Origin: Candidatus Levyibacteriota bacterium
GTDB taxonomy: Bacteria; Patescibacteriota; Microgenomatia; Levybacterales; UBA12049
Length of the DNA stretch: 60,582 nt
Assembly (NCBI GenBank): GCA_029260905.1
Contig: JAJDCH010000006.1
Coordinates: forward strand, 1 to 60,582
Reading direction: 5' to 3'
A program made the translations under genes and the position numbers. Below, in pieces: positions 12,783 through 56,328 of the stretch (positions are counted from its first letter, which is position 1; every line of letters starts with the position of its first letter). The notes under the pieces were generated by a model. That model searched no databases, was not told where the DNA came from, and was given only the letters and a program-made list of their open reading frames with translations.

Positions 12783-12785
12783 AAT

Positions 12786-13778
12786 ATGTTAAATCCAAAC
12801 TTAAAACTAAATACAAAATTATTTGACGTAGACGTTGAAAAAAAACCAACCCGCGCAGGCTTTGGCACAGGCCTTCTTGCTCTTGGCAAAAAAGACAAAA
12901 ATGTAGTCGGGCTTTGTGCTGATCTCACAGAGTCAACCCAAATGAACCTTTTTGCTGATGCATTTCCTGAGAGATTTTTCCAAGTCGGTGTTGCTGAGCA
13001 AAATATGGCAGCAGTTGCAGCAGGACTAGGAGTTACTGGCAAAACAGCTTTTATTTCCAGTTATGCTACTTTCTCCCCTGGTAAAAATTGGGAAACAATC
13101 AGAACCACAATTGTTTACAACAAAGCAAATGTCAAAATAGCAGGCCATCATTCAGGAATCATGACAGGTCCTGATGGAGCAACTCACCAAGCAACTGAGG
13201 ATATAGCCATAACACGCTGCTGGCCGGGTATTGAAGTATATGTTCCATGTGATGCAATTGAAGCAGAAAAAGCAACTATTGCGTCTGCTAAAACACAAAA
13301 ACCAGTTTATCTTCGCTACTCAAGAGACAAAACTCCGCTAATCACAACTGCAGATACACCTTTTGAGGTAGGCAAACTACAGGACTTCTGGGTCAGTGAA
13401 AATCCGCAAGTAACTATCTTTGCAACAGGCTATATGCTTTACTATGCATTAGTTGCCGCAAAAGAGCTTGAAGATGAAGGCATAAATACAATAGCTGTAA
13501 ATGTCGCAACCATTAAACCACTTGACTCAAATGAAGTTCTCAAATTTACCAATCAAACAAGCGCTGTTGTAACAGTTGAAGATCATCAAATAACAGGCGG
13601 CATGGGCAGTGCAATTGCTGAATCTCTGGCCAAAACCAATCCCCTGCCGATTGAGTTTGTCGGCATGCAAGACGTATTTGGCGAAACAGGAACACCAGCC
13701 CAACTCTTAAAGAAATACAAAATGAATCCTGAAGCAATCAAAGAAGCTGTAAAAAGAGTGATACGTAGAAAGCGTTAA
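12786..13778 (+). CDS. tktB: Transketolase, C-terminal subunit
   Basis: TRAGFG, ADLTES, GVAEQNM, GPDGATHQ, PVYLR, IKPLD, VEDH, GMGSAIAE. Confidence 0.95.
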   Translation: MLNPNLKLNTKLFDVDVEKKPTRAGFGTGLLALGKKDKNVVGLCADLTESTQMNLFADAFPERFFQVGVAEQNMAAVAAGLGVTGKTAFISSYATFSPGKNWETIRTTIVYNKANVKIAGHHSGIMTGPDGATHQATEDIAITRCWPGIEVYVPCDAIEAEKATIASAKTQKPVYLRYSRDKTPLITTADTPFEVGKLQDFWVSENPQVTIFATGYMLYYALVAAKELEDEGINTIAVNVATIKPLDSNEVLKFTNQTSAVVTVEDHQITGGMGSAIAESLAKTNPLPIEFVGMQDVFGETGTPAQLLKKYKMNPEAIKEAVKRVIRRKR

Positions 13779-13840
13779 GGGTAAAGCGTCAAGGGTGAAG
13801 TTTTTTTCTTTCCCCTTAGCGCTTAGCGCTTTCCCCTTAA
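13769..13840. repeat. Empty inverted heptamer-array hairpin (AAAGCGT/AAGGGT class)
   Basis: AAAGCGT-TAAGGGT-AAAGCGT-CAAGGGT-GAAG, T7 loop, CTTT-CCCCTTA-GCGCTTA-GCGCTTT-CCCCTTA. Confidence 0.85.
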
Positions 13841-13845
13841 ATATT

Positions 13846-15501
13846 ATGGATCAAAACCTGCTCACAGAATTAAAAGAACTTATCTCAGGTGATGTGGAAA
13901 CATCAGAAGAGGTACTAAGCAAATATTCACACGACGCAAGTATTTTTGAGATACGTCCTCAAGTCGTTGTCTTCCCCAAAACAGATGCCGACATCCAAAA
14001 TCTCATAAAATTCGTTGCCAAACACAAAAAAGAACACCCAGATCTCAATATCACAGCACGGGCTGCCAGCACCTGCATGTCAGGAGGAGGACTTGGCACA
14101 TCAATTATTGTTGCTTTCCAGAAATATTTTAACCATCAGCCAAAAATTGTGGGCAAAATAGCCTCAACTCAGCCTGGTGTTTTTTATCGTGATTTTGAGA
14201 AAGAAACCCTCAAACATGATCTAATTTTTCCCTCTTTCCCCTCCTCCCGTGAGATTTGCGCAATGGGCGGAATTGTCAATAACAACGCAGGCGGTGAAAA
14301 ATCTCTAGAGTATGGCAAAACTGAAGATTATATCCATTCACTACAAATGATCCTTGCTGATGGTAATGAATACGAAATAAAACCACTAAACAAAAATCAG
14401 CTTGAAGAAAAAATGGCGCAAGATAACTTTGAAGGCATAGTTTATAAAAAAACCTACGAACTTATAACTAATAACTTAGAGCTTATAACCAAAGCCAAGC
14501 CAAAGGTTAGCAAAAACTCAAGCGGCTATTTCCTCTGGAATGTCTGGGATCCTGAAAAAAAGGTCTTTGATCTTTGTAAATTATTTACCGGCGCGCAGGG
14601 AACTCTAGGCATCATGACTGAGGCTAAGCTCAAACTCGTGTCAACCAAAAAACACCGTGAAATGATGATTATTTTTCTTCATGACTTCAAACACTTAGCA
14701 GAAATCATCAATAAAGTCTTGCCTCTTGAACCTGAAAGTTTTGAGGCTTACGATGACAAAACGCTTAAGCTTGCTCTCAAATTCTTTCCCGCATTTTCCA
14801 AAAAACTTGGCACCAGATCTGTTCTGACAACTGCGCTCGAATTTTTGCCTGAAATGCAAATGTACAAAGATCACAAACTCCCCAAGCTCGTCATGCAAAT
14901 TGATTTTGCTGATGATCACCTATCAGTTCTTAAAGAGAAAATAAATGATCTGACTGAGAAACTCCAATCAATTCATCCGAATGATGTCAAAGTAGCAATT
15001 GATACTGAAGAAAAAAAATACTGGCTGATCAGACGAGACAGCTTCGGCCTTCTGAGAAAACACGTTGAGAATATGTATTCTTCCCCTTTTATTGATGACA
15101 TCGTTGTTAATCCTGAACATCTGCCTGAGTTTTTACCACAATTTAATCAGATTTTGGATAAATATCCATCTGTAATTGGCACTTTTGCAGGACACGTCGG
15201 AAACGGCAATTTTCACTTTATCCCGCTTGTCGATCTCAAAGATCCCAAAGAACAAAAACTAATTCCCCAAATCTGTGATGAAGTTTTTAAGCTTGTCATC
15301 AAATACGGTGGCTCAACATCTGGCGAGCATAATGATGGCTGGATAAGAACACCTTTTATGAAATATCAGTTTGATGAGAAGATCCTAAAGCTTTTTGAGG
15401 AAACCAAAAATATTTTTGATCCAGATGGGATATTTAACCCACACAAAAAAGTCAACGGAGATCTGGATTTTGCTATGAAGCATGTAAGAACTAGTTGGTA
15501 G
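13846..15501 (+). CDS. FAD-binding oxidoreductase (GlcD/D-lactate dehydrogenase-like)
   Basis: YSHDASIF, PQVVVFP, MGGIVNNNAGG, GAQGTLG, GHVGNGNFH, GEHNDG, DPDGIFNP. Start at ATG 13846 after the hairpin. Confidence 0.88.
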   Translation: MDQNLLTELKELISGDVETSEEVLSKYSHDASIFEIRPQVVVFPKTDADIQNLIKFVAKHKKEHPDLNITARAASTCMSGGGLGTSIIVAFQKYFNHQPKIVGKIASTQPGVFYRDFEKETLKHDLIFPSFPSSREICAMGGIVNNNAGGEKSLEYGKTEDYIHSLQMILADGNEYEIKPLNKNQLEEKMAQDNFEGIVYKKTYELITNNLELITKAKPKVSKNSSGYFLWNVWDPEKKVFDLCKLFTGAQGTLGIMTEAKLKLVSTKKHREMMIIFLHDFKHLAEIINKVLPLEPESFEAYDDKTLKLALKFFPAFSKKLGTRSVLTTALEFLPEMQMYKDHKLPKLVMQIDFADDHLSVLKEKINDLTEKLQSIHPNDVKVAIDTEEKKYWLIRRDSFGLLRKHVENMYSSPFIDDIVVNPEHLPEFLPQFNQILDKYPSVIGTFAGHVGNGNFHFIPLVDLKDPKEQKLIPQICDEVFKLVIKYGGSTSGEHNDGWIRTPFMKYQFDEKILKLFEETKNIFDPDGIFNPHKKVNGDLDFAMKHVRTSW

Positions 15502-17927: not shown

Positions 17928-18278
17928 AAATAACCCAATACTACCAATAACCCAATCAGCAAATCAATGCAGAATACCAGATGTAGAATAATTTGTTTCT
18001 TTACCTTCTTTTCTAACTATTGCATATTTTGCAATAAAATCTTTTCTGCTATCTGTTCCGTCTGCTTCTTGATCGTTTGCTCCCATTGAAGTAGCTGAGC
18101 GTGTTATCTGAGTTATTATAATAATATTCTCAGGAGTCTTTGGAAGTTGTTTTACTAATTTTAAAATCCTTATTATAAATTGATAAATTCTTTCATGAAT
18201 ATCCTGAATCTTTTCTGTGTTTTGCATTGGATTATTGATTAGTAGTATTTGTAGTATTGGTTTATTTGTTTATTTATT
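17928..18278. mobile_element. Inverted octamer arrays enclosing a truncated four-helix-bundle gene
   Basis: Arm 17928-17981 (AATAACCC/AATACTACC/AATCAGCA) and arm 18214-18278 (reverse complement AATAAACA/AATACTAC/AATAATCC). Mobility is inferred. Confidence 0.6.
17964..18227 (-). pseudogene. Four-helix-bundle (IVP family) gene lacking its C-terminal helix
   Basis: DIHERIYQF...LPKTPEN...QITRSATSMGANDQEADG...DFIAKYAIVRKEGKETNY then abruptly STSGILH*; roughly 30 aa shorter than the 117-aa paralogue. Confidence 0.75.
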
Positions 18279-19253
18279 AACCATCTCCTCCATCTCATCT
18301 CTTGTCAGAAGCCCTGCTTCAGCGCCTATGTGGCCAACCACTGATGAGGAATTGACAGCTCCCCAACCCATCGCATCAGGAATATTCATTCCCTGAACAA
18401 TTGCAGCCAAGAAGCCTGAAGCATATGCATCCCCTGCTCCTGTCCGCTCTATCGGCTCTCCAGGAATCAATCCGCGAAGGTAAAAATTACCATCCATATC
18501 AAGCGCGCTTGATCCTTCCTTGCCATTTGTTATTACCACAACACGTGGTCCCAATTTCTGCAACTCTTTGGATAATTTACGGATATACTCCTCACTATCA
18601 TCATCTGTTTTTTTATAGTGACCATAAAGAATACGCTCAGCCTCCTCTTTGTTTACAAAAAGAGCTTCAGTATTTCTAATTACTTCTTCGAATACTTCTC
18701 CTTGATCTTTAAGCTGGGTACTTCCAGGATTAAATGCTATTTTGGCTTTTTGCTTTTTGACAAAATCAAGAACTGTTTTATAAGGCTTTTCCCATTCTCT
18801 TCCTAGACTAGTCAGATAAATCCAACCTGCCTCTACATCCTCTAAATGAAAATCATGCTCCTGCTCACGCTCTTCAGCAAAAATAGTCCGATCTCCTGCA
18901 AAATTTATAATAACCGACAGGTTTGATGGCGCGTTTCTCTTCTCAACCATCAAAAGCCTTTCAATATTTTCTTTAGCAAGGCTATTTCTGATTTTAATTG
19001 AAAATTCATCATCCCCAACCTCTGCAACAATAGTTGCCTTGACACCAAGTCTAGACAAACCAACAGCCACATTAGCAGCATTTCCACCCATTTGAAATAC
19101 ATATTCATCAACCACTATCTTTTCACCAAGGCGAAAACAAACCCCGCCTGCATGTACACTGTCCTTATGCAATTCTTTTTGAGAATCATGAATTTTCATG
19201 TAGGCATCCAGCCTGGCAGTTCCAACTGTTATCACATCATATTTTCTGACCAT
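18270..19253 (-). CDS. PfkB-family carbohydrate kinase
   Basis: GGNAANVAVGLSRLG, FNPG, NKEE, VITNGKEGS, ERTGAGDAYASGF. Confidence 0.92.
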   Translation of the reverse strand: MVRKYDVITVGTARLDAYMKIHDSQKELHKDSVHAGGVCFRLGEKIVVDEYVFQMGGNAANVAVGLSRLGVKATIVAEVGDDEFSIKIRNSLAKENIERLLMVEKRNAPSNLSVIINFAGDRTIFAEEREQEHDFHLEDVEAGWIYLTSLGREWEKPYKTVLDFVKKQKAKIAFNPGSTQLKDQGEVFEEVIRNTEALFVNKEEAERILYGHYKKTDDDSEEYIRKLSKELQKLGPRVVVITNGKEGSSALDMDGNFYLRGLIPGEPIERTGAGDAYASGFLAAIVQGMNIPDAMGWGAVNSSSVVGHIGAEAGLLTRDEMEEMVNK

Positions 19254-21982: not shown

Positions 21983-22100
21983 TCTAATTTTAATATCTAA
22001 ACACCAAATAAATCCAAAATATAAATATCTAATTTGTTTTGGAATTTGTACTTTTACTATTTGGTATTGTTTAGGATTTAGAATTTAGAGCTTAGGATTT
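21983..22100. repeat. Empty inverted heptamer-array hairpin (TCTAAAT class)
   Basis: AATATCT-AAACACC-AAAT...AAATATCT then GGAATTT...AGGATTT-AGAATTT-AGAGCTT-AGGATTT; overlaps the msrB stop. Confidence 0.75.
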
Positions 22101-22511
22101 ATCTTCCTTTTTCTTGAACTCAAGAGCTGCGGAGTTGATACAATAGTGCTGATTGGTTGGAGAAGAATTATCGTCAAACAAATGCCCCAGATGACCGCCA
22201 CACGTTTTACAAACTACTTCCGTTCGGGACATTCCCAAACTATTATCTTGGACTAGCTCAACCGTGTCCCTACTTGCCACATCAGCAAAGCTCGGCCAGC
22301 CCTCGAGTCCAGGAACATCTGATTCATACTTGGCATCACTCTTAAAAAGCACGCTCCCACAACCAGCACACGTATAGTCGCCTGTTTGACTATTTTGCAA
22401 AAGCTCTCCTGTCCCCGGGCGCTCCGTTCCCTTCTCTCGCAGTACTTTATACTGCTCAGGCGTCAGTCTTTCCTTCCAATATTTGTCGTCCTTGTCCCGC
22501 ATGTTGCCCAT
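22092..22511 (-). CDS. msrB: Peptide methionine-R-sulfoxide reductase
   Basis: LTPEQYKVLREKGTERP, CAGC, GWPSF, RTEVVCKTCGGHLGHLF, YCINS. Confidence 0.95.
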   Translation of the reverse strand: MGNMRDKDDKYWKERLTPEQYKVLREKGTERPGTGELLQNSQTGDYTCAGCGSVLFKSDAKYESDVPGLEGWPSFADVASRDTVELVQDNSLGMSRTEVVCKTCGGHLGHLFDDNSSPTNQHYCINSAALEFKKKEDKS

Positions 22512-30487: not shown

Positions 30488-30595
30488 AATTCTAAACTCT
30501 AAATACTAATATCTAAATCCTAAATAATTTCAAAATTCTAATTTAGAAATCATATTGTTTTGTACTTTTACTTTCGGTCATTTGATATTATTTAA
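30488..30595. repeat. Empty inverted heptamer-array hairpin (TCTAAAT class)
   Basis: AATTCT-AAACTCT-AAATACT-AATATCT-AAATCCT arm and GTACTTT-TACTTTC...GATATTATTT arm between the prs stop and recR start. Confidence 0.75.
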
Positions 30596-33096: not shown

Positions 33097-34641
33097 CTAT
33101 TTCAATTCTACAACAATATCTACACTATTTCCAGTAAGCATTTTCGCAGCTCTTGAAAGACTTTCCTGCACTTTTACATCATCTAGTCTTTCTTTGTGAA
33201 ATTTAAATTTTGATTCAATTAAAAGCATTTTTTTATCATAACTTTTTAATCTGCAACCCCGCAAGACTCCTGCAATTGTATGATTGTGATTTTTCATTTC
33301 ATCTATTAGACTATTCCAGAGAGTATCAAGCCACTCAGGTGTTATCTCAGAGCTTGATGTATGCATTAACTCAATTGAAGGCTTGGTATTTACCTTTTCA
33401 GTATTTGTTGCTTTTTTAGAAATGGATCCATTTATGGCATTTTCCTTTGCGATATTACCAATCTTTTTTTTAAAATCTCCTATATTGCCAGTACCGTATT
33501 TTGACTGACTTTTAACCCCTTCTACTCCTTTATCAACTTCCAAATTTTCAGCTGTTGCTTCACGTGTTTTTATAGAATACTCAATCACTGCAAGCTCCAG
33601 CGGAAGCTGTGGAAGAACTGAGTATTTCATCTCCTGATATGATTTTGAGAGAATATCAAAAAGCAAAGCAATCTCAGCTATTTCAAAATTAGCACCAGGT
33701 ATTTCAAATACCTCTTGGGTTGCATTTGTTTTGGAGAGAAGAAGTTTGTGGAGCGTTTCTATAACCTGCTGCAAAAAATATCTAAAATCAATTCCCGTTT
33801 CAGTTAATTTTGAAATTGTTTTCATGCCTTCCCCACTATCTTTTTTATAAAGTGAAGCAAGAAGCGCTATAACATAATGATTTATACTTGTAACTCTGTA
33901 TTTTTCCTCAATCATTTCTCCTGTTATCTTCTTGCCGTTTGACTGCATCACAATCTCCTCCAATATCTTTGTCCCATCCCTAAATCCGCCATCCGACAAA
34001 TGAGCAATTGATAAAAGAGCCTCATCATCAATAGCAACCCTCTCGCCTTTTGTTATACGTTTGAATGAACGAATCAGCTCCATGTCAGTTGCCAAATGAA
34101 AAGAAATATGAAAACATCGCGATACAATTGTTGATGGAACTTTTTCAAGAGCGGTCGTACAAAGTATAAATATGGCATGATTCGGTGGCTCTTCAAGTGT
34201 CTTAAGAAGTGCATTAAATGCCTCAGTTGTTAGCATATGAACCTCATCTATTATATAGACCTTCTTGCTTGCGGAAATAGGCGAAAGCCCAATTTTTTCC
34301 TTTAGATCACGTATCTCATCTATCCCCCTATTACTTGCCCCATCTATCTCCAGAATATCCATATTTGTTCCTTCAGTAATTGATAGACATTGATCACATT
34401 TATTACAAGGCTCTATTTCCCTCCCCTTTACGCTTTCCCCCTTACGCTTTTTGTCAGTACAATTAAGGACTTTAGCTACAATTCTGGCTGTTGATGTTTT
34501 ACCAAGACCCTTTGGGCCTGTGAAGAGAAATGCATGCGGAGTATTTTCCTGATTTTTTAGAACCGATAAAAGACTTTCCCTTACCTTTTCACTATCTAAA
34601 TCATCAATAATCTGTGGTCTGTATTTTCTATAAAAAACCAT
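33097..34641 (-). CDS. dnaX: DNA polymerase III subunit gamma/tau
   Basis: FYRKYRPQ, GPKGLGKTS, EIDGASNRGID, IIDEVHML, FNALLKTLEEPP, TIVSRC. Confidence 0.97.
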   Translation of the reverse strand: MVFYRKYRPQIIDDLDSEKVRESLLSVLKNQENTPHAFLFTGPKGLGKTSTARIVAKVLNCTDKKRKGESVKGREIEPCNKCDQCLSITEGTNMDILEIDGASNRGIDEIRDLKEKIGLSPISASKKVYIIDEVHMLTTEAFNALLKTLEEPPNHAIFILCTTALEKVPSTIVSRCFHISFHLATDMELIRSFKRITKGERVAIDDEALLSIAHLSDGGFRDGTKILEEIVMQSNGKKITGEMIEEKYRVTSINHYVIALLASLYKKDSGEGMKTISKLTETGIDFRYFLQQVIETLHKLLLSKTNATQEVFEIPGANFEIAEIALLFDILSKSYQEMKYSVLPQLPLELAVIEYSIKTREATAENLEVDKGVEGVKSQSKYGTGNIGDFKKKIGNIAKENAINGSISKKATNTEKVNTKPSIELMHTSSSEITPEWLDTLWNSLIDEMKNHNHTIAGVLRGCRLKSYDKKMLLIESKFKFHKERLDDVKVQESLSRAAKMLTGNSVDIVVELK

Positions 34642-38055: not shown

Positions 38056-38610
38056 ATGGATCCTCAATCTCTTAATAATCTTGATCCCAAACTCCGCGAA
38101 ACTTACGAACGCGTAATGGGTGGTGCGGCAAGCGCAGCCAGAGCAGCGGTCCCAGATCAAAATACATCAGAGGATACGAATTTACCTGATAATCCTCCGC
38201 CACCATCCTCATTTCAAGTCCCACAAGGACCCGAACTCACACCAAAACCATCTGATACGCTAGCTGTATCGCCTGATGATAACGATCAACAACCTATCCA
38301 AACCCAACCAGAACAACCCCAGCAGTCAACTGAACAGCCAGAACCAAAAGCAACTTTCTCAACTCCTCTTAGTCAGCAAAACCAACAGATTAATACTCCG
38401 CAGCCAACTGGCCCTGTTAATCTGCCTGATCTAAACAATGTCCCCAACCTGTCAGAAAACAAGAATGCGAACAATCAAGCGCATGAAGCTCAGGAAACGT
38501 CTCCTGTTCTTAAAATTCTATACATTTTCGGAGGAACTGTATTTTTCCTGATCTATATTTTTCTCTGGGCCAAAATCTTCAAACTCCCAATCCCCTTCCT
38601 ATCGTTCTAA
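38056..38610 (+). CDS. Hypothetical Pro/Gln-rich protein with C-terminal TM
   Basis: Start moved to MDPQSLNNLDPKLRETYERVMG (TATAAA 7 nt upstream); disordered middle; C-terminal TM. Confidence 0.65.
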   Translation: MDPQSLNNLDPKLRETYERVMGGAASAARAAVPDQNTSEDTNLPDNPPPPSSFQVPQGPELTPKPSDTLAVSPDDNDQQPIQTQPEQPQQSTEQPEPKATFSTPLSQQNQQINTPQPTGPVNLPDLNNVPNLSENKNANNQAHEAQETSPVLKILYIFGGTVFFLIYIFLWAKIFKLPIPFLSF

Positions 38611-38697
38611 TTGGAATTAGAAATTAAGAATTAGGAAATTACATCTCTGTCTCACATATATTAAAACCGTCGCATTTTCCGCGTTCGCGGGATTTTG

Positions 38698-40440
38698 TTA
38701 CTTCTTAATTTTTTGAAGTATCTCGTCAAAACTCAGAAGCTTGGATTCTTTCTCAGTTCGTTTTTTAAATTCAATCTTTTCCCCTGCTTGCCCTGAGCCA
38801 TGCTGAAGGGTCTTTTCACTTACCACCAAACGCACAGGAATTCCGATCAAATCTGCATCTGCAAATTTGTTGCCAACTGATACCTCCCGGTCATCATACA
38901 AAACCTCTACTCCCACATCCTGCAATTTTTCGTAAATTTCATCTCCAAAATTTTTAACTTTTGAATTGTCATTTTGAGTTTTGACTTTTGAATTTTGAAT
39001 TATAATCAGATGCACATCAAACGGCGCAATTGACTCAGGCCAGATAATACCACGATCATCATTGCTTACCTCAACCACCGCAGCCAGTGTCCTCCCAATT
39101 CCTATTCCGTAGCAACCCATATAGTAAGGCTTTTCCGATCCATCTTCATCGATAAAAGTAGCGCCTTTCATTTTTTTACTGTAATGATATCCAAGCTGGA
39201 AAATATTTCCAACTTCAATTCCTCGGAATACCTCGTAAGGTTCGCCTGTTTCAGGATAGAGATCTCCTGCTCTGGTTTCTTTAAAGTCATAAAATTTTTC
39301 AGGTAGTGGCAAGTCCCGCTCAAAGTTTACATTTATTACATGGACGTCTGTTTTATTTGATCCCATTTCAAAATTAACTCTTCCTCTCATTGAATCATCC
39401 AGAAACACTTTCACCTCTTTTGGTAGATTGAGAATTCCTGCATATCCGACCTCTGCCCCGGTCAGCTCCTTAATTTTCTCAGACGCAATCAATGTCAAGC
39501 TCTGACAGCCAATGATTCTTTTAAGTTTTATTTCATCAATATCGTATTCTCCACGCAGTGCTGCTGCGATAACATCTCCTTTTTCTGTTTCAAAAAGAAT
39601 TGTTTTTGTCGTTTTCTCAACTGGAATATTTAAGAATTTTGCCAGTGCCTCAACTCCGATAATTCCTTTTCCAACAACATCCTCCATTGGTTTTGGCTCT
39701 TCCCCTTTCTGGTCAAATGGTGTTGCCATGGTTGGTGCAATTTCTTTATTAAAATACATCTTTTTCGATGGAACATAAAAAATAGTATCCTCTCCTGCAT
39801 TTGATTTGACCTGAAATTCGTGCGCATAATCCCCACCTATGTCACCATTGTCTGCACCCACCATGAATGTATTAAGTCCGACTCGCTCAAATATTTTTGT
39901 GTAAGTTTTTGACATTTTTTCATATTCTTTCTTAAAATCATCCTCTGATGCGTGAAATGAATATCCATCTTTCATGATAAACTCCCTAACCCTCAGAAGT
40001 CCCCCTCGAGCTCTTAGCTCGTCTCGGAATTTGGAAGCAAACTGATAAAGCTGAAAAGGCAAATCTTTATAGCTAATTTGAAACTTACGAACCAAATCAA
40101 CAAGCATTTCCTCAGCCGTCCCGCCGAGAACAAATTCCATATCACGTCGGTCTTTTATTTTAAGTAGGCCAAAATCAGCCTTGTCACGGTTGGTTTCTTT
40201 CCACAAATCAAGCGGATGGAGAATTGGAACGAGGATTTCCTGGGCACCTGCTCTATCCATTTCTTCTTTAACTACTTTTATAATTTTCTGCTGCACTCTC
40301 TGTCCTAGAGGCAGGAAATAATATCTTCCCGCTGTACTTTCCCTTATAAATCCTGCTTGATACAAAAGCTGATGCGATTTCAGAGTTGCATCTTTTGGTA
40401 TGTCTTTAATTGTCTTTCCAAAAAGGTGTGAATATTTCAT
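38698..40440 (-). CDS. proS: Proline--tRNA ligase (bacterial type with editing domain)
   Basis: SHQLLYQAGFI, FRDELRARGGLLRVREFIMKDGYSF, GIEVGNIFQLG, MGCYGIGIGR. Confidence 0.96.
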   Translation of the reverse strand: MKYSHLFGKTIKDIPKDATLKSHQLLYQAGFIRESTAGRYYFLPLGQRVQQKIIKVVKEEMDRAGAQEILVPILHPLDLWKETNRDKADFGLLKIKDRRDMEFVLGGTAEEMLVDLVRKFQISYKDLPFQLYQFASKFRDELRARGGLLRVREFIMKDGYSFHASEDDFKKEYEKMSKTYTKIFERVGLNTFMVGADNGDIGGDYAHEFQVKSNAGEDTIFYVPSKKMYFNKEIAPTMATPFDQKGEEPKPMEDVVGKGIIGVEALAKFLNIPVEKTTKTILFETEKGDVIAAALRGEYDIDEIKLKRIIGCQSLTLIASEKIKELTGAEVGYAGILNLPKEVKVFLDDSMRGRVNFEMGSNKTDVHVINVNFERDLPLPEKFYDFKETRAGDLYPETGEPYEVFRGIEVGNIFQLGYHYSKKMKGATFIDEDGSEKPYYMGCYGIGIGRTLAAVVEVSNDDRGIIWPESIAPFDVHLIIIQNSKVKTQNDNSKVKNFGDEIYEKLQDVGVEVLYDDREVSVGNKFADADLIGIPVRLVVSEKTLQHGSGQAGEKIEFKKRTEKESKLLSFDEILQKIKK

Positions 40441-43266: not shown

Positions 43267-44475
43267 CTACTTAAAAAAGACTTGCGCTAGGTCCTTGAAG
43301 GTAACGACAATAATAAGCCCAATCAAAATAAGTATCCCAATTGAATTTGCATATGCTTCAAATTTAGGATTTAGCTTTCTCCTCGTCACTGCCTCAATCG
43401 CTATGAAAAATAGCCGTCCCCCATCAAGACCTGGAATTGGTAGAACATTGAAAAAAGCAAGTGATATTGACAAAACTCCTGCGAGATTAAGAATTTGTAA
43501 AATTACAAATCTGAGATCAGGAATCTCTATAATCTGTCCCACCACATTAAAAATCAAAACAGGCCCACCCACACTATCACTAAGTGGTTTTACTGTTTTC
43601 TCCTGAACTGATTTATTTATTAACTCACCAAAACCGCCAATACTGTAAAGAAAGGTATTGTAGGTATGCGAGAAACCCGAAAATGCAATTTGAGTCGGAG
43701 TGTTGTAGTTTACAATAACAGTATTCAAATCATTATAGCCAAAAGATATTCCAAGCGCTCCCTCTCCCTCTGGCGGATCTTTTCTTGGAATCATCGTCTT
43801 TACAAAGTTTTTATCAGCTTTGAAGTCATACCACTCTATTGCTATTTCCTTTCCCAGATTTTTATCAATCAGATCAATTATGTCTTTTTCGCCCTCAAGT
43901 CGCACGCCCTGAATAGTCAAAATAACAGCTGGCGCTTCCATCCCTGCATCCTGCGCCGGTGAACCATCTGCCACCTCGCCAACAGCTATTCCCTTTGGAA
44001 TAAATCTCTTTTCAGCTCCGATAAAACCTGGATCTTTTTCTCCTAGAACAGGAAGAGGTGTCACAAAACCTGAGATGAATAAAAACAGATAAAAAACAAC
44101 AACTGCCAAAAGCGTATTCATCACTACTCCCGCACCAACCACTGATGCTCTTTGCCAGATAGGACGGGCAAAATAAGCCCTTTTCATATCCTTAAAGTTC
44201 TTGGATCTTAACTCTTGGTTCTTGGTAGGCGCAGCAACTGCGCCTCTTCCTGCTTCATCTTCTCCATAAAGCTTTACAAATCCGCCAATTAAAGCTGGAT
44301 AGAAAGAATACTTAGTCTCACCTTTTTTTATTGAAAAAAGAGGCTTTGTCAGTGGCAATCCAAACCCAAACTCCTCTACCTTTATCCCAAATTTCTTGGC
44401 CACAAAAAAATGCCCTGCTTCATGAATAAGAACAAGAACTGAAAGAATAAGAAGAAAAATAAGTGCCGTCAGCAT
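43267..44475 (-). CDS. rseP: Site-2 (M50) intramembrane zinc metalloprotease with PDZ domain
   Basis: HEAGH, GGFVKLYGE, GAGVVMN, PDZ region, NVLPIPGLDGGR. Confidence 0.94.
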   Translation of the reverse strand: MLTALIFLLILSVLVLIHEAGHFFVAKKFGIKVEEFGFGLPLTKPLFSIKKGETKYSFYPALIGGFVKLYGEDEAGRGAVAAPTKNQELRSKNFKDMKRAYFARPIWQRASVVGAGVVMNTLLAVVVFYLFLFISGFVTPLPVLGEKDPGFIGAEKRFIPKGIAVGEVADGSPAQDAGMEAPAVILTIQGVRLEGEKDIIDLIDKNLGKEIAIEWYDFKADKNFVKTMIPRKDPPEGEGALGISFGYNDLNTVIVNYNTPTQIAFSGFSHTYNTFLYSIGGFGELINKSVQEKTVKPLSDSVGGPVLIFNVVGQIIEIPDLRFVILQILNLAGVLSISLAFFNVLPIPGLDGGRLFFIAIEAVTRRKLNPKFEAYANSIGILILIGLIIVVTFKDLAQVFFK

Positions 44476-46837: not shown

Positions 46838-46846
46838 ATTTTGAAA

Positions 46847-46956
46847 ATTTCTAAGCTCTAATTTCTAATTACCTAATCAAATCCTAATTATAAATTTATA
46901 AATTAGGTTTTAGACATTTTTTAGAAATTAGGTTAATTTAAGTCAATTAGGAATTA
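46847..46956. repeat. Empty inverted heptamer-array hairpin (TCTAAAT/TTCTAAT class)
   Basis: ATTTCTA-AGCTCTA-ATTTCTA-ATTACCTA versus TAGAAAT-TAGGTTAAT...TAGGAAT between the tsf stop and frr start. Confidence 0.8.
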
Positions 46957-49645: not shown

Positions 49646-50971
49646 TCAGGGTACGGGGTATTTGAAACAAAATTTCCTAACTTCACCAGCTATTAACTTC
49701 AATTTTTTATTGGCAAGTATTTCTTTTTTCATCTTTTTCCAAATCTCGCGCCTTTTTTCTTTATCAGCCGGCAAGTCCTCACCTGCCACCTCGTCAATTG
49801 CCTGTGCCATCCAAGAAGCTACTTTTTTCATATCCTTTTCTTTCATGCCTCGAGTTGTGATCGCTGGTGTTCCAAGCCTTATTCCAGATGGATAAAAAGG
49901 CGGATTGGTATCAAAGGGCACGCCGTTTTTGTTAAGAACTATTCCAGCCATCTCCAGAGCGAGTGCTGCTGGGGCGCCGTTGACTTTTTTGTTACGCAAA
50001 TCAATAAGAATCAGGTGATTATCCGTCCCTCCACTAACCAAGTCAAACCCAAGACGCGTCAACTCTGAGGCCAAGGCTTTGGAATTTTTGACAATTTGTG
50101 CTCCGTACTTCTTAAATGCTGGCTTACCTGCTTCAAGAAGTGCAACAGCAATTGCCGCTGTTTGATTGTCGTGCGGCCCTCCCTGAAGACCAGGAATTAT
50201 TGCCCGTTCGATATCTGCAGGCATGTCAGGATTACGCTTCAAGCCCTTATCCGTTACCATTATCATCGCACCTCTTGGACCCCTGAGTGTCTTATGAGTT
50301 GTTGTCATCACAACATCTGCGTATTTCACAGGTGACTCGTGCTCTTCTGCAATTATCAGACCAGTAATATGTGATATATCAGCCAGTAGATATGCACCCA
50401 CCTTTTCTGCAATCTTTGCAAACCTTTTAAAATCAATTTTTCGAGGATATGCGGTAAATCCTGCCACAATTATCTGTGGTTTTTCCTTAATTGCCTGCTT
50501 CTCAATCGCCTCATAATCAAGCAAGCCATCCTTCCCAAGTGTGTATGGAATTGCCTTATAAAAAGTACTAGACATATTAAGTTTTGCTCCATGTGTCAGG
50601 TGCCCGCCAAAAGAAAGCGACATTCCCATTATCTTGTCTCCAGGTTTTAGTAGCGCGAAGTAAATTGCAGCATTTGCTGGGCTGCCTGAGTAAGCTTGCA
50701 CATTAGCATACGGAACACCAAAAAGCTTCTGCGCCCTCTCTTGAGCCGTTATCTCAACACTATCTGCAACCGCATTTCCCTGATAATATCTTTTCTTTGG
50801 AAAACCTTCTGAATATTTATTGGTCAAGACAGTTCCCAGTGCCTCCATCACCGCGCGTGATGTGTAATTTTCTGAAGGGATCATCTCGAGTACATCTTTT
50901 TGTCTTTGCTCTTCCTGTTTTATCAAATTATAAATCTGCGGATCTGTCTTTTTGAGATTTTGCACGTCCAT
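49646..50971 (-). CDS. glyA: Serine hydroxymethyltransferase
   Basis: IPSENY, NKYSEGFPKKRYYQG, GGHLTHG, TTTHKTLRGPRG, SGIRLGTPAITTRG. Start at MDVQN. Confidence 0.97.
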   Translation of the reverse strand: MDVQNLKKTDPQIYNLIKQEEQRQKDVLEMIPSENYTSRAVMEALGTVLTNKYSEGFPKKRYYQGNAVADSVEITAQERAQKLFGVPYANVQAYSGSPANAAIYFALLKPGDKIMGMSLSFGGHLTHGAKLNMSSTFYKAIPYTLGKDGLLDYEAIEKQAIKEKPQIIVAGFTAYPRKIDFKRFAKIAEKVGAYLLADISHITGLIIAEEHESPVKYADVVMTTTHKTLRGPRGAMIMVTDKGLKRNPDMPADIERAIIPGLQGGPHDNQTAAIAVALLEAGKPAFKKYGAQIVKNSKALASELTRLGFDLVSGGTDNHLILIDLRNKKVNGAPAALALEMAGIVLNKNGVPFDTNPPFYPSGIRLGTPAITTRGMKEKDMKKVASWMAQAIDEVAGEDLPADKEKRREIWKKMKKEILANKKLKLIAGEVRKFCFKYPVP

Positions 50972-51216
50972 ACTATACAAACTTTTTCCCTCCATTGCAA
51001 GGTTTAATAATTCGAGGATTTAAAGTGATATCTAGCAGAGTGAAGGAGTAAATTTTTTCGCCAGGACGAATGGCTGATCTGATTTTTAAATAACAATAAA
51101 AGGTAATCGCCCACAATAAGAGGACAACATCATAAACGCCAAAAGGTGGGTCCAAGAAAAAATTATATTCCTGAGCTCAAAATCAGAATAGAATGCCGTG
51201 ACAAGACCTGCAAGGC

Positions 51217-51717
51217 TTATTTTTCAAGCGTTAGAAATTTGTATTTGTATCCATCTGCTTCACGATCTATCTCCTCAATTACTTTTGTAAATTTTGAATA
51301 ATTTGGGAAAAATACATCTGCTCCATAATCTCCCTCAACAACAGTCAGATACAATCTATCAATCATGTTCTTATCAAGCGCTTCCTTGAAAATCTGTCCT
51401 CCACCAAAAACAATTATCTCATCCGCTCCCTCACTTCTTTTTGCTATTTCCAGACCCTCCTCAAGCGAGGCGACCACAACTGCTCCTGAAATTTTGTATT
51501 TGGGATCACGGGTGATGATGACATTTGTGCGATCGGGAAGAACCCGACCAATTGATTCAAAAGTTTTTCTCCCCATCACAACTGGATGATCGGTGGTCAA
51601 CTCCTTCATGCGTTTAAAATCCTCAGGAATCCTAAAAAGAAGATCATTATTTTTCCCAATCCCCTTCTTCTCATCAATTGCCACAACTATCGAAACCCTT
51701 TGCTTATTCATAATCAT
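51217..51717 (-). CDS. folA: Dihydrofolate reductase
   Basis: GIGKNNDL, PEDFKRMK, VMGRKTFESIGRVLPDRTNVI, FGGGQIF, DVFFP. Confidence 0.96.
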   Translation of the reverse strand: MIMNKQRVSIVVAIDEKKGIGKNNDLLFRIPEDFKRMKELTTDHPVVMGRKTFESIGRVLPDRTNVIITRDPKYKISGAVVVASLEEGLEIAKRSEGADEIIVFGGGQIFKEALDKNMIDRLYLTVVEGDYGADVFFPNYSKFTKVIEEIDREADGYKYKFLTLEK

Positions 51718-51800: not shown

Positions 51801-52795
51801 TTATTTTTTATTTTTGGGTCTTCTCTTCTCTCCTGCCTTAAGCTTTGGTAAAGGGTCATAATATCCGCCGGCCACAGTCAGCTCTGCCTTGATAGTCGGG
51901 TGTGGTTCGTAGCCGATCAACTCAACGTGTTCGGGTCGAAAATCTGACAAACCCTTGAATTTGCCAAGTTTTAGCTTTGGAAAAGACTTTGGTTTTCTTT
52001 TCAGCTGCTCTTTAACTTGTGCTACATGATTTTCATAAATATGCGCATCACCATATGTATGGATAAACTCCCCGGGTTTATAACCCAAGATTTTGGCAAG
52101 TATCACAGCAAGAAGTGAATAACTGCCGATATTAAAAGGCACACCAAGAAACATATCACAACTTCTCTGATACAGATGCAGCGACAACTTGTTGTCTTTG
52201 ACACTTACCTGATACATATTGTGACAAATTGGAAAATATGATGTCTCATCTTTCTCCGCCATACTGTAGAGATATTCAGGATTCCAGCTGTTAACTATTG
52301 CGTTTCTGGCATCAGGGTCTTCACTCAATTCTTTAATTACCCATGAGAGCTGATCAATTGTCTTCCCTTTTTTCCTTGTCGGCCATCTCCTCCACATCTC
52401 TCCATAAATACGCGGCAGCTCTCCCCATTTCTTGGCAAACTTCGCATCTGTCCTAATCTTTTCTATAAACTCCTCTTTTGTCAGCTTTTTGCTTTTTGCT
52501 TTTTGCTATATATCTTATATGGGTAGTCATCCCAGATGTGGACATTGTTATCAACTAGATATTTGATGTTGGAGTTACCTGACAAGAACCAATACAGCTC
52601 CTTGAGAACTCCGTTCCAGTACACTCTTTTGGTTGTCAAAAGCGGAAAACTTTCTGACAAATCATACCTAGACTGTCTACCAAAAACGCTGTATGATTTG
52701 ACCCCAGTCCCTCGATCTACATTGACAACTCCATTTTTGAGGATGTCTTTGAGAAGATCTAAATATTGATGCTCTTGATGTTTGTCTCCTGCCAT
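51801..52795 (-). pseudogene. thyA: Thymidylate synthase split by a frameshift in a (GCAAAAA)3 repeat
   Basis: N-part: QYLDLL, DRGTG, FPLLTTKRV, ELYWFLSG, IWDDY. C-part in another frame: LTKEEFIEK...WGELPRIYG, PICH, QRSCDMFLGVPFN, DAHIYENH. Confidence 0.85.
52486..52506. repeat. Perfect heptamer tandem repeat (TTTTTGC)3
   Basis: Read directly at the thyA frame break. Confidence 0.9.
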
Positions 52796-52854
52796 AATAT
52801 CTACCCAATACTACCAATAACCAAGTAAACAAATCAAGCAATAAATTTTCCACC

Positions 52855-52892
52855 ACACATCTTTTTACAACGATCGTTTCAAAAAGATGTGT
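52855..52892. repeat. 38-bp imperfect palindrome
   Basis: ACACATCTTTTT-ACA-ACGATCGT-TTC-AAAAAGATGTGT. Confidence 0.85.
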
Positions 52893-52968
52893 AATCCGAT
52901 ATCACTTTTTATTAATTTTGGGGGTTGCAAAAATTAATAATAAATCAGTTTTACTATTTATAACCTGC

Positions 52969-54015
52969 TCAAAGCTGATCGTTAATCAAAAATGCCAGAA
53001 CTAGTGAAACTGCCAGGCCAAATCCTGCTCTCAAAAGATCTTTTCTCACTAACTTCAACGTATGTGAGTAAGGTTTTTTCTTATGAAGTGTTGCACGTAG
53101 CGCAATCTCCCGCCCTGCAAGTAGGCCCAGGAATACCCAAGTCGTACTCATCGGCAAATCATTTATCCATTTGAAATAAACCAAGACCAAACCATATACA
53201 AAATCTATAATTGTTGCAGATTTTACATATAAAACATCTGTTTTCTCTGTAACAACTTTCTGAATCTCTCCTCCCCTGCGAGAGATGATATATCCAAGCG
53301 CAAAAAACATAAACAGCAAAACAACAATTGCCTCAAATCCGCTCAAGACTCGGGGTAAATATACTGTAGCATTGGCTGCATCTTGAGTAAGCCAAGCGCT
53401 CCACAGAAATCCTGTTGACAACCATTGCAGTATGCGCCACTTTCTTTCTTGTTTTTTGGTAAGCTTTCGATCAAGCTTTTGCTGTCTTTTTTTGACTAAA
53501 TATCCAATGGCTCCCCAGACAAGAAGCGCCACCAGGAACGAAAGGATATATCCAGTAATGGTTTTGTTTATCATGCCGGTTATTGTTTTTGAGGAAGAAA
53601 ATGTGGCAAGAATCAAAAAAGTAGTTGACACAGGCATCCTATATCTCGTCAATGAAATCAATATAATCGGTGCCAGAAGCTGAAGAAAAGAAAAATCACT
53701 TGGCTGAGGGATTCTATTTAACCTGTCAAAACTCACACTCCCTGCATTTGCAAACCAACCATATCCAAGAGTCACAAGCATAATCCCACCCATAAAAAGC
53801 CAGAGGATTTTCCAGGGAGTATTTCTATTGGAAGATAAAAAAGTACCTAGCGTCTGAATACTGTCATTACTAACTGTTGAAAACGCGGCTACCGCAAATC
53901 CAAACCACATTGCTAAAATCGGCTGATCAAATATAATCCCAGCTGTCAGAATTAGAACTGACATTATAGAAATAAAAACTACGTTGTTGCCGAAAAACGC
54001 ACGAGCTGCTCTCAT
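52969..54015 (-). CDS. Multi-pass membrane protein, distantly PiT/PHO4 (phosphate/sulfate permease)-like
   Basis: SNDSIQTLGTF, MPVSTT, QDAANATV and PMSTTWV resemble the duplicated PiT signatures. Confidence 0.55.
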   Translation of the reverse strand: MRAARAFFGNNVVFISIMSVLILTAGIIFDQPILAMWFGFAVAAFSTVSNDSIQTLGTFLSSNRNTPWKILWLFMGGIMLVTLGYGWFANAGSVSFDRLNRIPQPSDFSFLQLLAPIILISLTRYRMPVSTTFLILATFSSSKTITGMINKTITGYILSFLVALLVWGAIGYLVKKRQQKLDRKLTKKQERKWRILQWLSTGFLWSAWLTQDAANATVYLPRVLSGFEAIVVLLFMFFALGYIISRRGGEIQKVVTEKTDVLYVKSATIIDFVYGLVLVYFKWINDLPMSTTWVFLGLLAGREIALRATLHKKKPYSHTLKLVRKDLLRAGFGLAVSLVLAFLINDQL

Positions 54016-54142
54016 AAATAACTATAAATAACTATTTCTTTGTAACGGTTCTAAAAGAGCATAACTAAAAAATTATCAATACGCAATGCCCCCAGATTAG
54101 GGTTATTTTGGAAATTCTACAGATACGAAATATAACCAACCC

Positions 54143-54180
54143 ACACATTTTTTATACACGATCGTGTATAAAAAATGTGT
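54143..54180. repeat. Perfect 38-bp palindrome
   Basis: ACACATTTTTTATACACGATCGTGTATAAAAAATGTGT equals its own reverse complement. Confidence 0.92.
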
Positions 54181-54326
54181 ATTATTTCTGAGCTGGTTAA
54201 AGCCTCTATTGGAAAATTTTTTATAAAAAAAGCATCGACAGATAAATTTTAAACTGGAATAATCAATGAATGAAAAGCAATTAATATTGAAACACAAATG
54301 TACAACCTCTGCTTGTCTGATCTAGA

Positions 54327-54866
54327 CTAAACCTGCTTCTCTTTCTTCGTCGTTGTCACCCGGCCGCCCTGCCACTGGCCCCGGTACATATTGCCCCCAC
54401 CTGCGACTTCATGGAATTGGATGTGGACTATTCGCGCGCCAAGTTCTATCGTCACCGGAACTGGTCCTTCGTTTTTCAAACCAAAGTTCAAACCGCCACA
54501 ATATCCCGGTGGGACATTTCCTGTCCGAATAAATAAACCGCTGCGGTAAGTGGTGGAACGAGGCGTAATACTTGCAGTTAAATCTGGAGGCATATTGACA
54601 TTTTCTATGGTTTTGACAAGATAAAACTCACCCGGCTTGATGACCACTTTTTGTACTCTTTTTTCATCATACGCCTTGATGAGACTAACCTCAGCGGTGT
54701 GCCGTTCTGTGACACCCAGGAATGCTTTTCCAGATATTTTATAAACCTCACCAAGTCGCAGATCAAAACCTGCGCCCTCAGGATTTGTCAGCTCCCGCTC
54801 AGACAAGCTCTCAACAAGCTTTAGCTTTTTAACTAATTGTAATAATTTTTTCGGACCTAAAACCAT
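54327..54866 (-). CDS. Trimeric dUTPase/dCTP deaminase family protein
   Basis: GFDLRLG, PRSTTYRSG, PPGYCGGL, GARIVHIQF. Confidence 0.8.
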   Translation of the reverse strand: MVLGPKKLLQLVKKLKLVESLSERELTNPEGAGFDLRLGEVYKISGKAFLGVTERHTAEVSLIKAYDEKRVQKVVIKPGEFYLVKTIENVNMPPDLTASITPRSTTYRSGLFIRTGNVPPGYCGGLNFGLKNEGPVPVTIELGARIVHIQFHEVAGGGNMYRGQWQGGRVTTTKKEKQV

Positions 54867-54871
54867 AAATT

Positions 54872-54941
54872 AAATAAATCAGCAAATCAACTAATTCCCA
54901 ATCATCTAATTATCCAATTAACTTGCTGCTTGGTTGATTGC
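54872..54941. repeat. Inverted octamer-array hairpin with one arm inside the tmk 3' end
   Basis: AATAAATC-AGCAAATC-AACTAATT-CCCAATCA-TCTAATTA versus ACTTGCTG-CTTGGTTG-ATTGC (encodes AINQAAS*). Confidence 0.65.
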
Positions 54942-55589
54942 TTTTACAATCTCCCCCGCGACTTCCTCAACGCTCTTTCCAGCATCAATTATCTTAAACT
55001 CCTCAGAAAATTCTTTCAAGAGCCATTCATAACCATGGCAAACCTTCTCTATTTTATTTTTTTCCTCATAAATCTCTTTCTCTCCTCCCTTTTCTGAAAG
55101 TCTTTCTAGTGCTGTTTCTAAAGGCAGCTGAAGATAAAAAGTCTGATCAGGTATGGTAAAAGGCAACGCATGTCCAATCAGAAATTGATATGCCAAGGAA
55201 TAATCATATTCTCCATTCATCCGGTCAAGGATGCCATAAACAATCGCTGACCAAAAAGCCCTATCTGTTATTACAACTTTACCAGCTTTCAAGGCGGGCA
55301 CAATCAACTCTTCATGTTTTATTGCCCTATCTGTTGAAAAAAGATACTGATTGGCAATATCAGGAATTTTTATCTCGCCTGTTAAAACTTTTTCTACAAT
55401 ATCGCCAATTAAGCCTTCTTTTCTAGGCTCTCTCGTAGTTACAACAACACGTCCTTTTTCCTCAAAAAATCTTTTCAACTCATTAACTTGTGTAGTTTTT
55501 CCAGACCCATCTATGCCCTCAAGCGCAATATAAAGCCCCTCGTGGGGATTTCGTTTAAATTCAATGCCAAAATCAATGTGATACTTCAT
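54918..55589 (-). CDS. tmk: Thymidylate (dTMP) kinase
   Basis: EGIDGSGKTTQ, TREP, LFSTDRA, VITDRA, PDQTFYL. Confidence 0.94.
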   Translation of the reverse strand: MKYHIDFGIEFKRNPHEGLYIALEGIDGSGKTTQVNELKRFFEEKGRVVVTTREPRKEGLIGDIVEKVLTGEIKIPDIANQYLFSTDRAIKHEELIVPALKAGKVVITDRAFWSAIVYGILDRMNGEYDYSLAYQFLIGHALPFTIPDQTFYLQLPLETALERLSEKGGEKEIYEEKNKIEKVCHGYEWLLKEFSEEFKIIDAGKSVEEVAGEIVKAINQAAS

Positions 55590-55692: not shown

Positions 55693-56262
55693 CTATTTCT
55701 CCTCGTGAATTCTTGACTCTTCAGGTCCTTTTTGAAATCTGTACTTGGCATATCTTTTCTTGGAATAAGGATTGGTTGACTCACTGCTTAGTTCTTCAAA
55801 AGTCATAGCGCAAATCCGCATCCCAACTGTTAGCTTCAAGGCCATTCTGCCCAAATTTCCAAGCTCAAGAACAGGATTCCCATCCCATCCTGGATCAAAA
55901 ATACTAGCAGTTGAGTGAACAACTAGACCCAAACGACCAAGTGACGAACGCCCCTCAAGCCTACCCATCAGATCAGATGGAATTTTTACTGATTCAAGCG
56001 TGACAGCAAGCACAAATTCCCCAGGTTGCATAATAAAGCTACCATTTTGGGGCACTTTGATAACTTTTGTAATTTCATTGCTGTAGTCTTTCTGCGAAGG
56101 GTCTATGTAGGCGTGTCTCGAATGATCAAAAACCCGAAATGTGTCACCAAGCCTCAAATCAATTGAGCAACTACCAAGCTGTTTGTTCAAATCTGGCTTT
56201 GGTTTTATGAGAATTCTTTTTGAATCCAAAGCTTTTTTGATGTCCTGATCCGATAAAACCAT
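55693..56262 (-). CDS. dcd: dCTP deaminase
   Basis: MVLSDQDI, SIDLRLG, QPGEFVLA, EGRSSLGRLG, DPGWDG, LELGN, RICAM. Confidence 0.94.
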   Translation of the reverse strand: MVLSDQDIKKALDSKRILIKPKPDLNKQLGSCSIDLRLGDTFRVFDHSRHAYIDPSQKDYSNEITKVIKVPQNGSFIMQPGEFVLAVTLESVKIPSDLMGRLEGRSSLGRLGLVVHSTASIFDPGWDGNPVLELGNLGRMALKLTVGMRICAMTFEELSSESTNPYSKKRYAKYRFQKGPEESRIHEEK

Positions 56263-56328
56263 GATAGAAAGTTTACCACGGCTTGGGTATATTGACAATG
56301 CCTTATACATCTAATACGCTTAATTTGT

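Follow-up and report, generated by a model that had tools for sequence, protein, structure and literature searches.

The stretch of DNA analysed here, referred to as the window, spans 60,582 nucleotides of contig JAJDCH010000006.1 from a Candidatus Levyibacteriota bacterium, and carries on its minus strand a thymidylate synthase gene (thyA) that is broken at a short heptanucleotide tract amid intact neighbours. Directly downstream of thyA lies a full-length dihydrofolate reductase gene, folA (51217..51717; PF00186, E = 2.4e-47), followed by the serine hydroxymethyltransferase gene glyA (49646..50995; PF00464, E = 3.7e-155), and upstream lies a dcd-tmk-dcd group (54327-54866, 54918-55589 and 55693-56310; PF22769 and PF02223), all of them intact and on the minus strand. 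An earlier note, made from the letters of the window, had described folA, glyA, tmk and dcd as intact genes beside thyA, and the Pfam matches confirm this; the gene for a VWA protein and rpsB are also intact by Pfam. The order dcd-tmk-dcd-thyA-folA-glyA-VWA-rpsB is common to the window and to a 247-kb contig (JAJDCG010000002.1; locus L001, protein P0001) of 'Candidatus Levyibacteriota bacterium isolate OFTM197', which holds the closest homologue of the window's thyA product (91% amino acid identity). The best homologues in general are thymidylate synthases of CPR bacteria, assigned to Daviesbacteria, Microgenomates and 'Patescibacteria group'.

The two dcd genes encode dCTP-deaminase-like paralogues (54327-54866 and 55693-56310) on either side of tmk, a layout that OFTM197 shares. 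Between dcd and thyA, the window has a gene for a 348-aa membrane protein (52969-54015) with a weak PHO4 phosphate-transporter match that falls below the curated cut-off; this gene is missing from OFTM197, and a 40x contig in metagenome run X3 skips 52837-54334. OFTM197, for its part, has a Trp-repressor-like gene between thyA and folA.

On the minus strand, thyA contains TATATA(GCAAAAA)3GCTGAC and is read ...GAT GAC TAC CCA TAT AAG ATA TAT AGC AAA AAG CAA AAA GCA AAA AGC TGA.... The tract, A(GCAAAAA)3GC at 52484..52507, comprises three perfect units against four in the closest relatives, and is detected by TRF at 52484-52507 as GCTTTTT x3.4 with 100% matches. From its ATG at 52795, the N-terminal frame (52481..52795) runs for 104 codons to a TGA at 52483-52481, right behind the tract, and its 104-aa product ends in YSKKQKAKS. 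The C-terminal part of the enzyme lies in the -1 frame (51801..52505; 229 codons after the junction; TAA at 51803-51801), which is shut by a TAG at 52508-52506 just before unit 1, is then open to 51801, translates past the TAG as QKAKSKKLTKEEFIEK..., and contains the IYG motif and the catalytic-cysteine motif FPICHNM. Because the two frames overlap solely in the tract, a change of frame can join the halves nowhere else. The 7-nt unit is indivisible by three and sits inside the thyA open reading frame, which is interrupted at the tract; one more unit, four in all, yields a 333-aa product with a match along the whole PF00303 model (1-266 of 266; E = 1.1e-96). The earlier note had placed a frameshift of thyA exactly at (GCAAAAA)3, with frames that overlap only within the repeat and with one or four units restoring the frame. 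The minus-strand sequence and the translated frames agree with it on each point, and seven units would serve as well (n = 1, 4 or 7).

The tract exceeds chance expectation. It is the only perfect heptamer array of at least three units in the 60.6-kb window, no such array arose in 200 third-order Markov simulations, and the corresponding two-unit pattern has 4 matches in the window against 0.35 expected.

The rest of thyA is undamaged. When repaired with one added unit, the window protein keeps 166 of the 167 columns that are invariant among 19 relatives (51/51 before the junction and 115/116 after it, the sole change being S180 for T), and dN/dS against the OFTM197 gene, for which synonymous sites are saturated, is 0.037 before the junction and 0.054 after it. 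The full-length PF00303 match and the retention of catalytic and invariant residues identify the repaired protein as a member of the ThyA family, with E. faecalis thymidylate synthase as its best PDB match (E = 6e-85). Signs of a decayed pseudogene, such as several lesions or relaxed downstream constraint, are absent: there is one lesion, and the additional inactivating mutations by which the earlier note would have recognised a plain pseudogene were not found. A single lesion in an otherwise undamaged gene must be very recent, not real, or bypassed, and does not make an old pseudogene.

Comparison with the closest relatives suggests how the lesion arose. In DNA alignments the window shows a clean 7-nt gap in the tract. 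The thyA of OFTM197 has a perfect (GCAAAAA)4 in frame, an allele matched without difference by ~40x contigs in run X3, and the next locus, L002, has three perfect units plus GTAAAAA, also in frame. The OFTM197 peptide across the tract, YSKKQKAKSKKLTKEEF, is identical to that of the window repaired with four units, and in the protein alignment the corresponding peptide of P0003 reads FSKKQKAKSKKLNKEEF; the third locus, L003 (88% amino acid identity to the window), has a different, AGAATTA-like unit. With four in-frame units in both of the closest relatives, the window has lost exactly one, and four units are the ancestral state. The idea of a slipped-strand change in unit number, which the earlier note had offered for the lesion, is right in this respect, as the closest relatives have exactly four units in frame. 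The longest run of identity between the window and OFTM197, 34 nt, lies across the tract; we dropped the notion that the tract DNA is conserved beyond neutral expectation, because the gene has identical runs of 32 and 29 nt at other sites.

A key finding from our comparative analysis is that period-7 arrays recur at the same site of thyA across the clade. We collected 83 related thyA loci, 80 fetched from metagenomes and 3 through exact-protein look-up, picked by best tblastn score, so that the sample is biased towards intact genes; with that ranking, the segment from HIWDD to IYG is in a single frame in 83/83. In 34 of the 83 loci, TRF finds a period-7, -14 or -21 array in this segment. Arrays most often begin 33-34 nt past the first base of the HIWDD histidine codon, as the window tract does, and a length of exactly 31 nt (4.4 copies) is shared by 13 of the 34. 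Units differ by lineage (AGCAAAA, AAATCTC, AAAATCA, AGTTCAA, TCAAAAG, AAACTCA, AAGCTCA x6.4 and others), and seven lineages have perfect arrays, again of differing units. Such arrays are thus conserved clade-wide in position and lineage-specific in unit. By sequence alignment with 3uwl and 1lca, the tract peptide comes after HIWDEWAFE, where the small-domain insert of the long-form enzymes begins; this region varies in length among thymidylate synthases.

The presence of lineage-specific units at one site in 34 of 83 loci points to recurrent slippage there. Moreover, perfect arrays of a single 7-mer cannot be produced by in-frame 21-nt steps alone, from which we infer a history of out-of-frame states, or of frameshift plus compensation, in these lineages; units of 6 or 8 nt in some loci (L009, L060, L048, L065 and L086) look like traces of such compensation. 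The lesion in the window is a one-unit contraction of a clade-conserved, slippage-prone tract in a dispensable loop of an otherwise intact thyA. Literature searches on heptanucleotide repeats in CPR bacteria and simple sequence repeats in Patescibacteria, and on repeat-based thyA phase variation and Levyibacteria biofilm MAGs, found nothing relevant, and the clade-wide heptamer pattern in thyA appears to be undescribed so far.

Broken alleles at this site are not confined to the window. Many short thyA products came up when the 104-aa fragment was used as the query, and four of those that end near the array lie mid-contig (L085-L088). In L087 (positions 1209-2034 of ENA ERZ27254732 k141_704997, a MEGAHIT contig from an assembly unrelated to that of the window), the frame changes inside an (AAATTCG)3.9 array: the N-terminal part is in frame 0 and the C-terminal part in frame 2, with ...RNSEQ...LSKEEF as in relatives, and the gene would be rescued by one more unit or two fewer, the same arithmetic as in the window. 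This is a second out-of-phase thyA array. In L086 (149-1132 of ENA ERZ27253376 k141_1349802), an in-frame TAA lies within a 6.9-unit TCAAAAC array that includes a 6-nt unit, and the gene caller split the gene into products of 98 and 185 aa. Disruption at the thyA tract is recurrent yet rare: on and off states are not both common among genomes, as 83 loci, in a sample biased to intact genes, are in frame and only L087 and L086 were found among truncated fragments.

The other two candidates were rejected as repeat frameshifts. L085 (1501-2517, Logan ERR5523205) has an in-frame TGA where relatives have glycine, in a K-G-E-L-P motif, which suggests that its organism reads UGA as a sense codon (code 25 type); the gene caller split this gene in two. 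L088 is a chimeric contig joined at the array.

The thyA tract is also far from the only short heptamer array in these genomes. In the window, TRF reports period 7 more often than any other, with 18 rows against 2.2 expected (maximum 6 in 50 Markov simulations), an enrichment of ~8-fold over the Markov expectation. When the window and the related loci are taken together (340 kb), 7 is again the commonest period, with 138 arrays, of which 51% lie inside long open reading frames, although these make up 86% of bases. The arrays are short, with a median of 4.3 copies and six or more in 10 of the 138, and have no common unit consensus. The earlier note had suggested that the thyA repeat may derive from a "heptamer system" of the genome, and this held in part: period-7 arrays are strongly enriched in the window and its relatives, but they share no unit. 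As the thyA tract is one of these general arrays, a mutational propensity acting on a tolerant loop fits better than a dedicated element. Perhaps the heptamer arrays may be footprints of a specific mechanism that generates 7-nt duplications in these genomes.

Several of the individual arrays in the window deserve mention. Imperfect heptamer or 14-mer arrays lie at 12369-12392, 12750-12783 and 13769-13800, at the joins of the co-directional genes 11483-12376, 12786-13778 and 13795-15501. Together with a fourth array at 34422-34450, within a 514-aa open reading frame (33097-34641), they have related units of the type AAGCGTN or AAGGGTN and the reverse complement, and they could serve as a regulatory or spacer element. 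A/T-rich period-7 arrays of ~4-5.6 copies occupy short intergenic spacers at 22070-22101, 30488-30526, 38609-38641 and 46846-46870, either directly upstream of start codons (30487 and 46837) or at the 3' ends of genes. Within coding sequence, a degenerate AATTTTG x7.6 array (38949-39001, in the 580-aa open reading frame 38698-40440) and a degenerate GTTCTTG x4.3 array (44197-44226, in the 402-aa open reading frame 43267-44475) leave the frame unbroken and may be further cases of tolerant loops like that of thyA. In addition, the minus strand has a GCAAAAA-like array as in thyA at 18740-18759 (2.9 copies; one mismatch per unit pair), within a 327-aa open reading frame (18270-19253).

Whether the three-unit allele exists in nature depends on independent reads of the junction, and here the metagenomic evidence is mixed. 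We used Logan contigs (k = 31) from five public runs (X1-X5) of one biofilm-metagenome study, four of which hold parts of the window genome. In the best of them, X3, the window organism has a depth of ~5-8x, against ~40x for OFTM197; this sister species (~82% nucleotide identity in thyA) shares the samples and is ~5-8 times more abundant than the window organism in X3. An abundant sister in the same samples means that k-mer graphs are tangled in conserved genes, and over the repeat the two organisms have an identical core of 34-47 nt. The three-unit junction was present in no Logan contig and in no independent assembly searched. Exact-protein look-ups with the window's folA and the N-terminal thyA fragment gave no match in the searched assemblies, a flank-anchored DNA pattern with a variable gap retrieved only OFTM197 in genome contigs and nothing in metagenome contigs, and a junction-centred search of runs gave none that held all junction words.

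The contigs that approach the tract are nevertheless informative. In X1, a left-flank contig ends at 52498, inside unit 2. In X2, a 420-nt contig matches 52094-52507 without differences, with the exception of its first six letters, which do not fit the window; on the OFTM197 locus it aligns from letter 1 at 6290, with the repeat ungapped and 49 differences further on. It starts (GCAAAAA)4GCTGAC... and so has at least four units on a window-type right flank, with the proviso that none of its first six 31-mers includes a base peculiar to the window and that a different organism with this repeat could be their source. Furthermore, the seven-k-mer cycle of pure GCAAAAA is complete, as a 37-nt unitig in X1 and as unitigs of 35 and 32 nt (depth 15-18) in X2; these were placed on 6289-6319 of the OFTM197 locus. 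A complete cycle implies that arrays of at least 37 nt (5.3 units) exist somewhere in the X1 and X2 samples, in one genome or another, and hence that the GCAAAAA repeat varies in length in this community.

The reading we prefer, at just under even odds (about 0.45), is that the three-unit form is a real and recent OFF allele, a slippage variant segregating with in-frame alleles. The array is prone to slippage and lies where the variable loop of the small domain begins in a thymidylate synthase of the long form (L. casei / E. faecalis type); relatives keep its units at n = 1 mod 3, normally four (31 nt), and so encode a Lys/Ser/Gln-rich loop peptide. Strand slippage between identical 7-mers would have removed one unit in the window, so that translation would halt after residue 104 and leave residues 105-333, including the IYG tyrosine and the catalytic cysteine, in the -1 frame. 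The resulting thyA-OFF allele would be recent, in principle reversible, and would segregate with in-frame alleles of at least four units in a low-abundance population, having been generated at a mutational hot spot without selection, and not as a regulated switch. OFF cells would rely on salvage of thymidine or dTMP, or on low spontaneous -1 slippage on AAA AAG. This reading is consistent with the pristine state of the repaired thyA and the four-unit allele of OFTM197 at ~40x, and with the out-of-phase array of L087, the in-array stop of L086 and the length variation in the community. It is weakened by the missing junction in independent assemblies and by the X2 contig, the only one to enter the tract from the window-type right flank, which fits four units and not three. 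The window organism is at ~5-8x next to a 40x sister with an identical repeat in the same samples, the 24 nt of the array are the shortest loop-free walk at k = 21, and a working thyA would be in keeping with its intact folA and dcd/tmk neighbours.

The same observations make it quite possible that the assembly or its consensus miscounted the units, that the true allele has four (or seven), and that thyA is intact; the earlier note had listed such an assembly collapse among its explanations. In that case the repeat loop would have been walked one turn too few, or a spurious path would have been taken through the abundant sister that shares the repeat. The X2 contig, in which four or more units adjoin the window-type flank, and the failure to find three units in any contig argue for this, as do the low depth, a graph tangled by the 40x relative with its 34-47 nt identical core, and the otherwise perfect state of thyA and its neighbours. 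By our own reasoning, all 21-mers of the three-unit form also occur in reads of longer alleles and 24 nt is the minimal valid walk at k = 21, so that a miscount by the assembler is possible; L087, a MEGAHIT k141 contig, likewise has an array of minimal length (27 nt). Against a miscount, any read above 31 nt in length spans the tract, and the usual response of an assembler to such a loop is to break the contig, not to miscount. All 83 relatives, in a sample ranked towards intact genes, were assembled in frame, seven of them with perfect arrays, and the first six k-mers of the X2 contig could stem from another organism with the same repeat. Finally, a contig of 60 kb suggests that the source assembly had adequate depth, above 5-8x, which makes a purely low-coverage collapse less likely.

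It is tempting to speculate that the tract is instead a selected contingency switch, kept in the thyA of Microgenomates-type CPR bacteria so that slippage toggles thymidylate synthesis stochastically and an episymbiont alternates between making dTMP de novo and salvaging it from a host; the OFF state would save folate oxidation when the host supplies thymidine. If so, the window would be the first OFF state to be captured. We consider this unlikely, even though the tract position is kept in 34 of 83 loci and seven lineages have perfectly homogenised arrays of different units, which imply past out-of-frame states. Out-of-phase or stop-containing arrays recur, repeat length varies in the community, and short coding repeats can cause phase variation, as with (TTTA)n in S. 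aureus icaC (PMC4117637). However, the arrays are short (median 4.3 copies, with 10/138 at six or more) and OFF states are rare among assemblies. Period-7 arrays occur genome-wide and mostly between genes, as would fit mutational bias plus a tolerant loop, the 34-nt identity between the window and OFTM197 at the tract is unexceptional beside other runs of 32 nt, and thyA is no typical contingency gene. Of the phase variation proposed in the earlier note, then, the slipped-strand change in unit number stands, and the switching is putative at most, given a short tract and 83 relatives in frame, albeit in a sample ranked towards intact genes.

The remaining readings, an old pseudogene and a programmed frameshift, are highly improbable even when taken together. 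That thyA was lost long ago and is fixed as a pseudogene in this lineage would suit CPR bacteria, which often lack nucleotide biosynthesis, and scans of the 60-kb window for the thyX motif (RHRxxS) and for thymidine kinase gave only spurious matches, a scope that is uninformative either way for the whole genome. Yet there is one lesion only, the downstream frame is open for 229 codons with 115/116 invariant residues and a dN/dS of 0.054, folA is intact, and the same study has a contig in which four or more units occur; the reading is largely refuted already and we regard it as very improbable.

Least probable of all is that a programmed -1 ribosomal frameshift, or transcriptional slippage on the A-runs, gives full-length ThyA: the rescue direction is indeed -1, the 0 frame contains AAA AAG with an A_AAG slippery tetramer, and low-level spontaneous slippage is plausible by comparison with E. 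coli dnaX and IS elements, but the base ahead of AAA AAG is C, so that no full X XXY YYZ site exists in AGC AAA AAG CAA AAA GCA AAA AGC TGA and C AAA AAG would allow A-site slippage only; the 118 nt from the tract on have no stimulatory RNA structure (MFE -14.1 against a shuffle mean of -14.9, z = 0.29, with 118/200 shuffles folding at least as well), the arrangement is not conserved, given that 83/83 relatives examined, ranked towards intact genes, are in one frame, and A5 runs are too short for efficient slippage by RNA polymerase. The spontaneous -1 slippage on A_AAG that E. coli work makes plausible at a low level would not be programmed, and the frameshift on the A-runs that the earlier note had listed among its explanations is therefore unsupported. 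Two further routes to a functional product were rejected. Recoding of UGA (code 25) fails at a TAG six codons later, and in a split enzyme with re-initiation, the first canonical start in the C-terminal frame, M136 (52397), leaves residues 105-135, with the invariant IYG, untranslated.

Should the three-unit allele be real, a reversible one-step change has deprived some cells of a CPR population of thymidylate synthase, which would bear directly on the dependence of ultra-small cells on thymidine from a host or community. Real or not, dozens of lineages have a 7-nt array, with a unit peculiar to each, at one and the same codon position of a core metabolic gene. This conserved position with variable units, combined with the genome-wide excess of period 7, is a more novel result than the frameshift, which as a single event is of modest interest by comparison, and points to a distinctive and testable mutational process in these genomes. 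It also calls for caution in the annotation of MAGs, as this site of thyA can show up as a false "pseudogene".

Among known systems, the closest documented mechanism is slipped-strand frameshifting at short coding repeats, for example phase variation of S. aureus icaC through its (TTTA)n repeat (PMC4117637). Like icaC, and like the CTCTT repeats of Neisseria opa and the CAAT repeats of H. influenzae lic1A, thyA has a non-triplet repeat in its open reading frame at which a change of one unit toggles the frame, and like icaC it has few units. Unlike these three, thyA encodes a housekeeping enzyme, has a 7-nt unit and is known here from sequence and not from switching; its tract is, moreover, conserved in position across a clade and lineage-specific in unit.

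Loss of thyA itself has precedents in thymidine-dependent small-colony variants of S. aureus and in trimethoprim-selected thyA mutants of E. coli. Truncating and frameshift lesions of thyA are tolerated when thymidine is available from outside, and they remove the sole step that oxidises tetrahydrofolate to dihydrofolate. In those species the lesions are scattered and drug-selected, whereas the lesion in the window is tied to a conserved repeat hot spot. With the A AAA AAG site of dnaX and with IS911, the window shares an A-rich sequence with AAA AAG, and a -1 shift in the overlap would give the full protein; in contrast to both, it has no in-phase slippery heptamer, stimulatory structure or conservation. 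The best structural relatives of the enzyme are those of E. faecalis (3uwl) and L. casei (1lca), in which the tract peptide corresponds to the start of a ~50-residue small-domain insert. Unlike in 3uwl and 1lca, a tandem array in the DNA codes for the first ~10 residues of that insert in the window. The genome-wide pattern, finally, recalls the STRR sequences of cyanobacteria, which are dispersed short tandem arrays of 7-nt units that lie mostly outside genes and have no known function. The arrays described here are likewise dispersed, short and mostly outside genes, but STRR families have defined consensus units, whereas here the units vary by array and one class lies inside a conserved gene.
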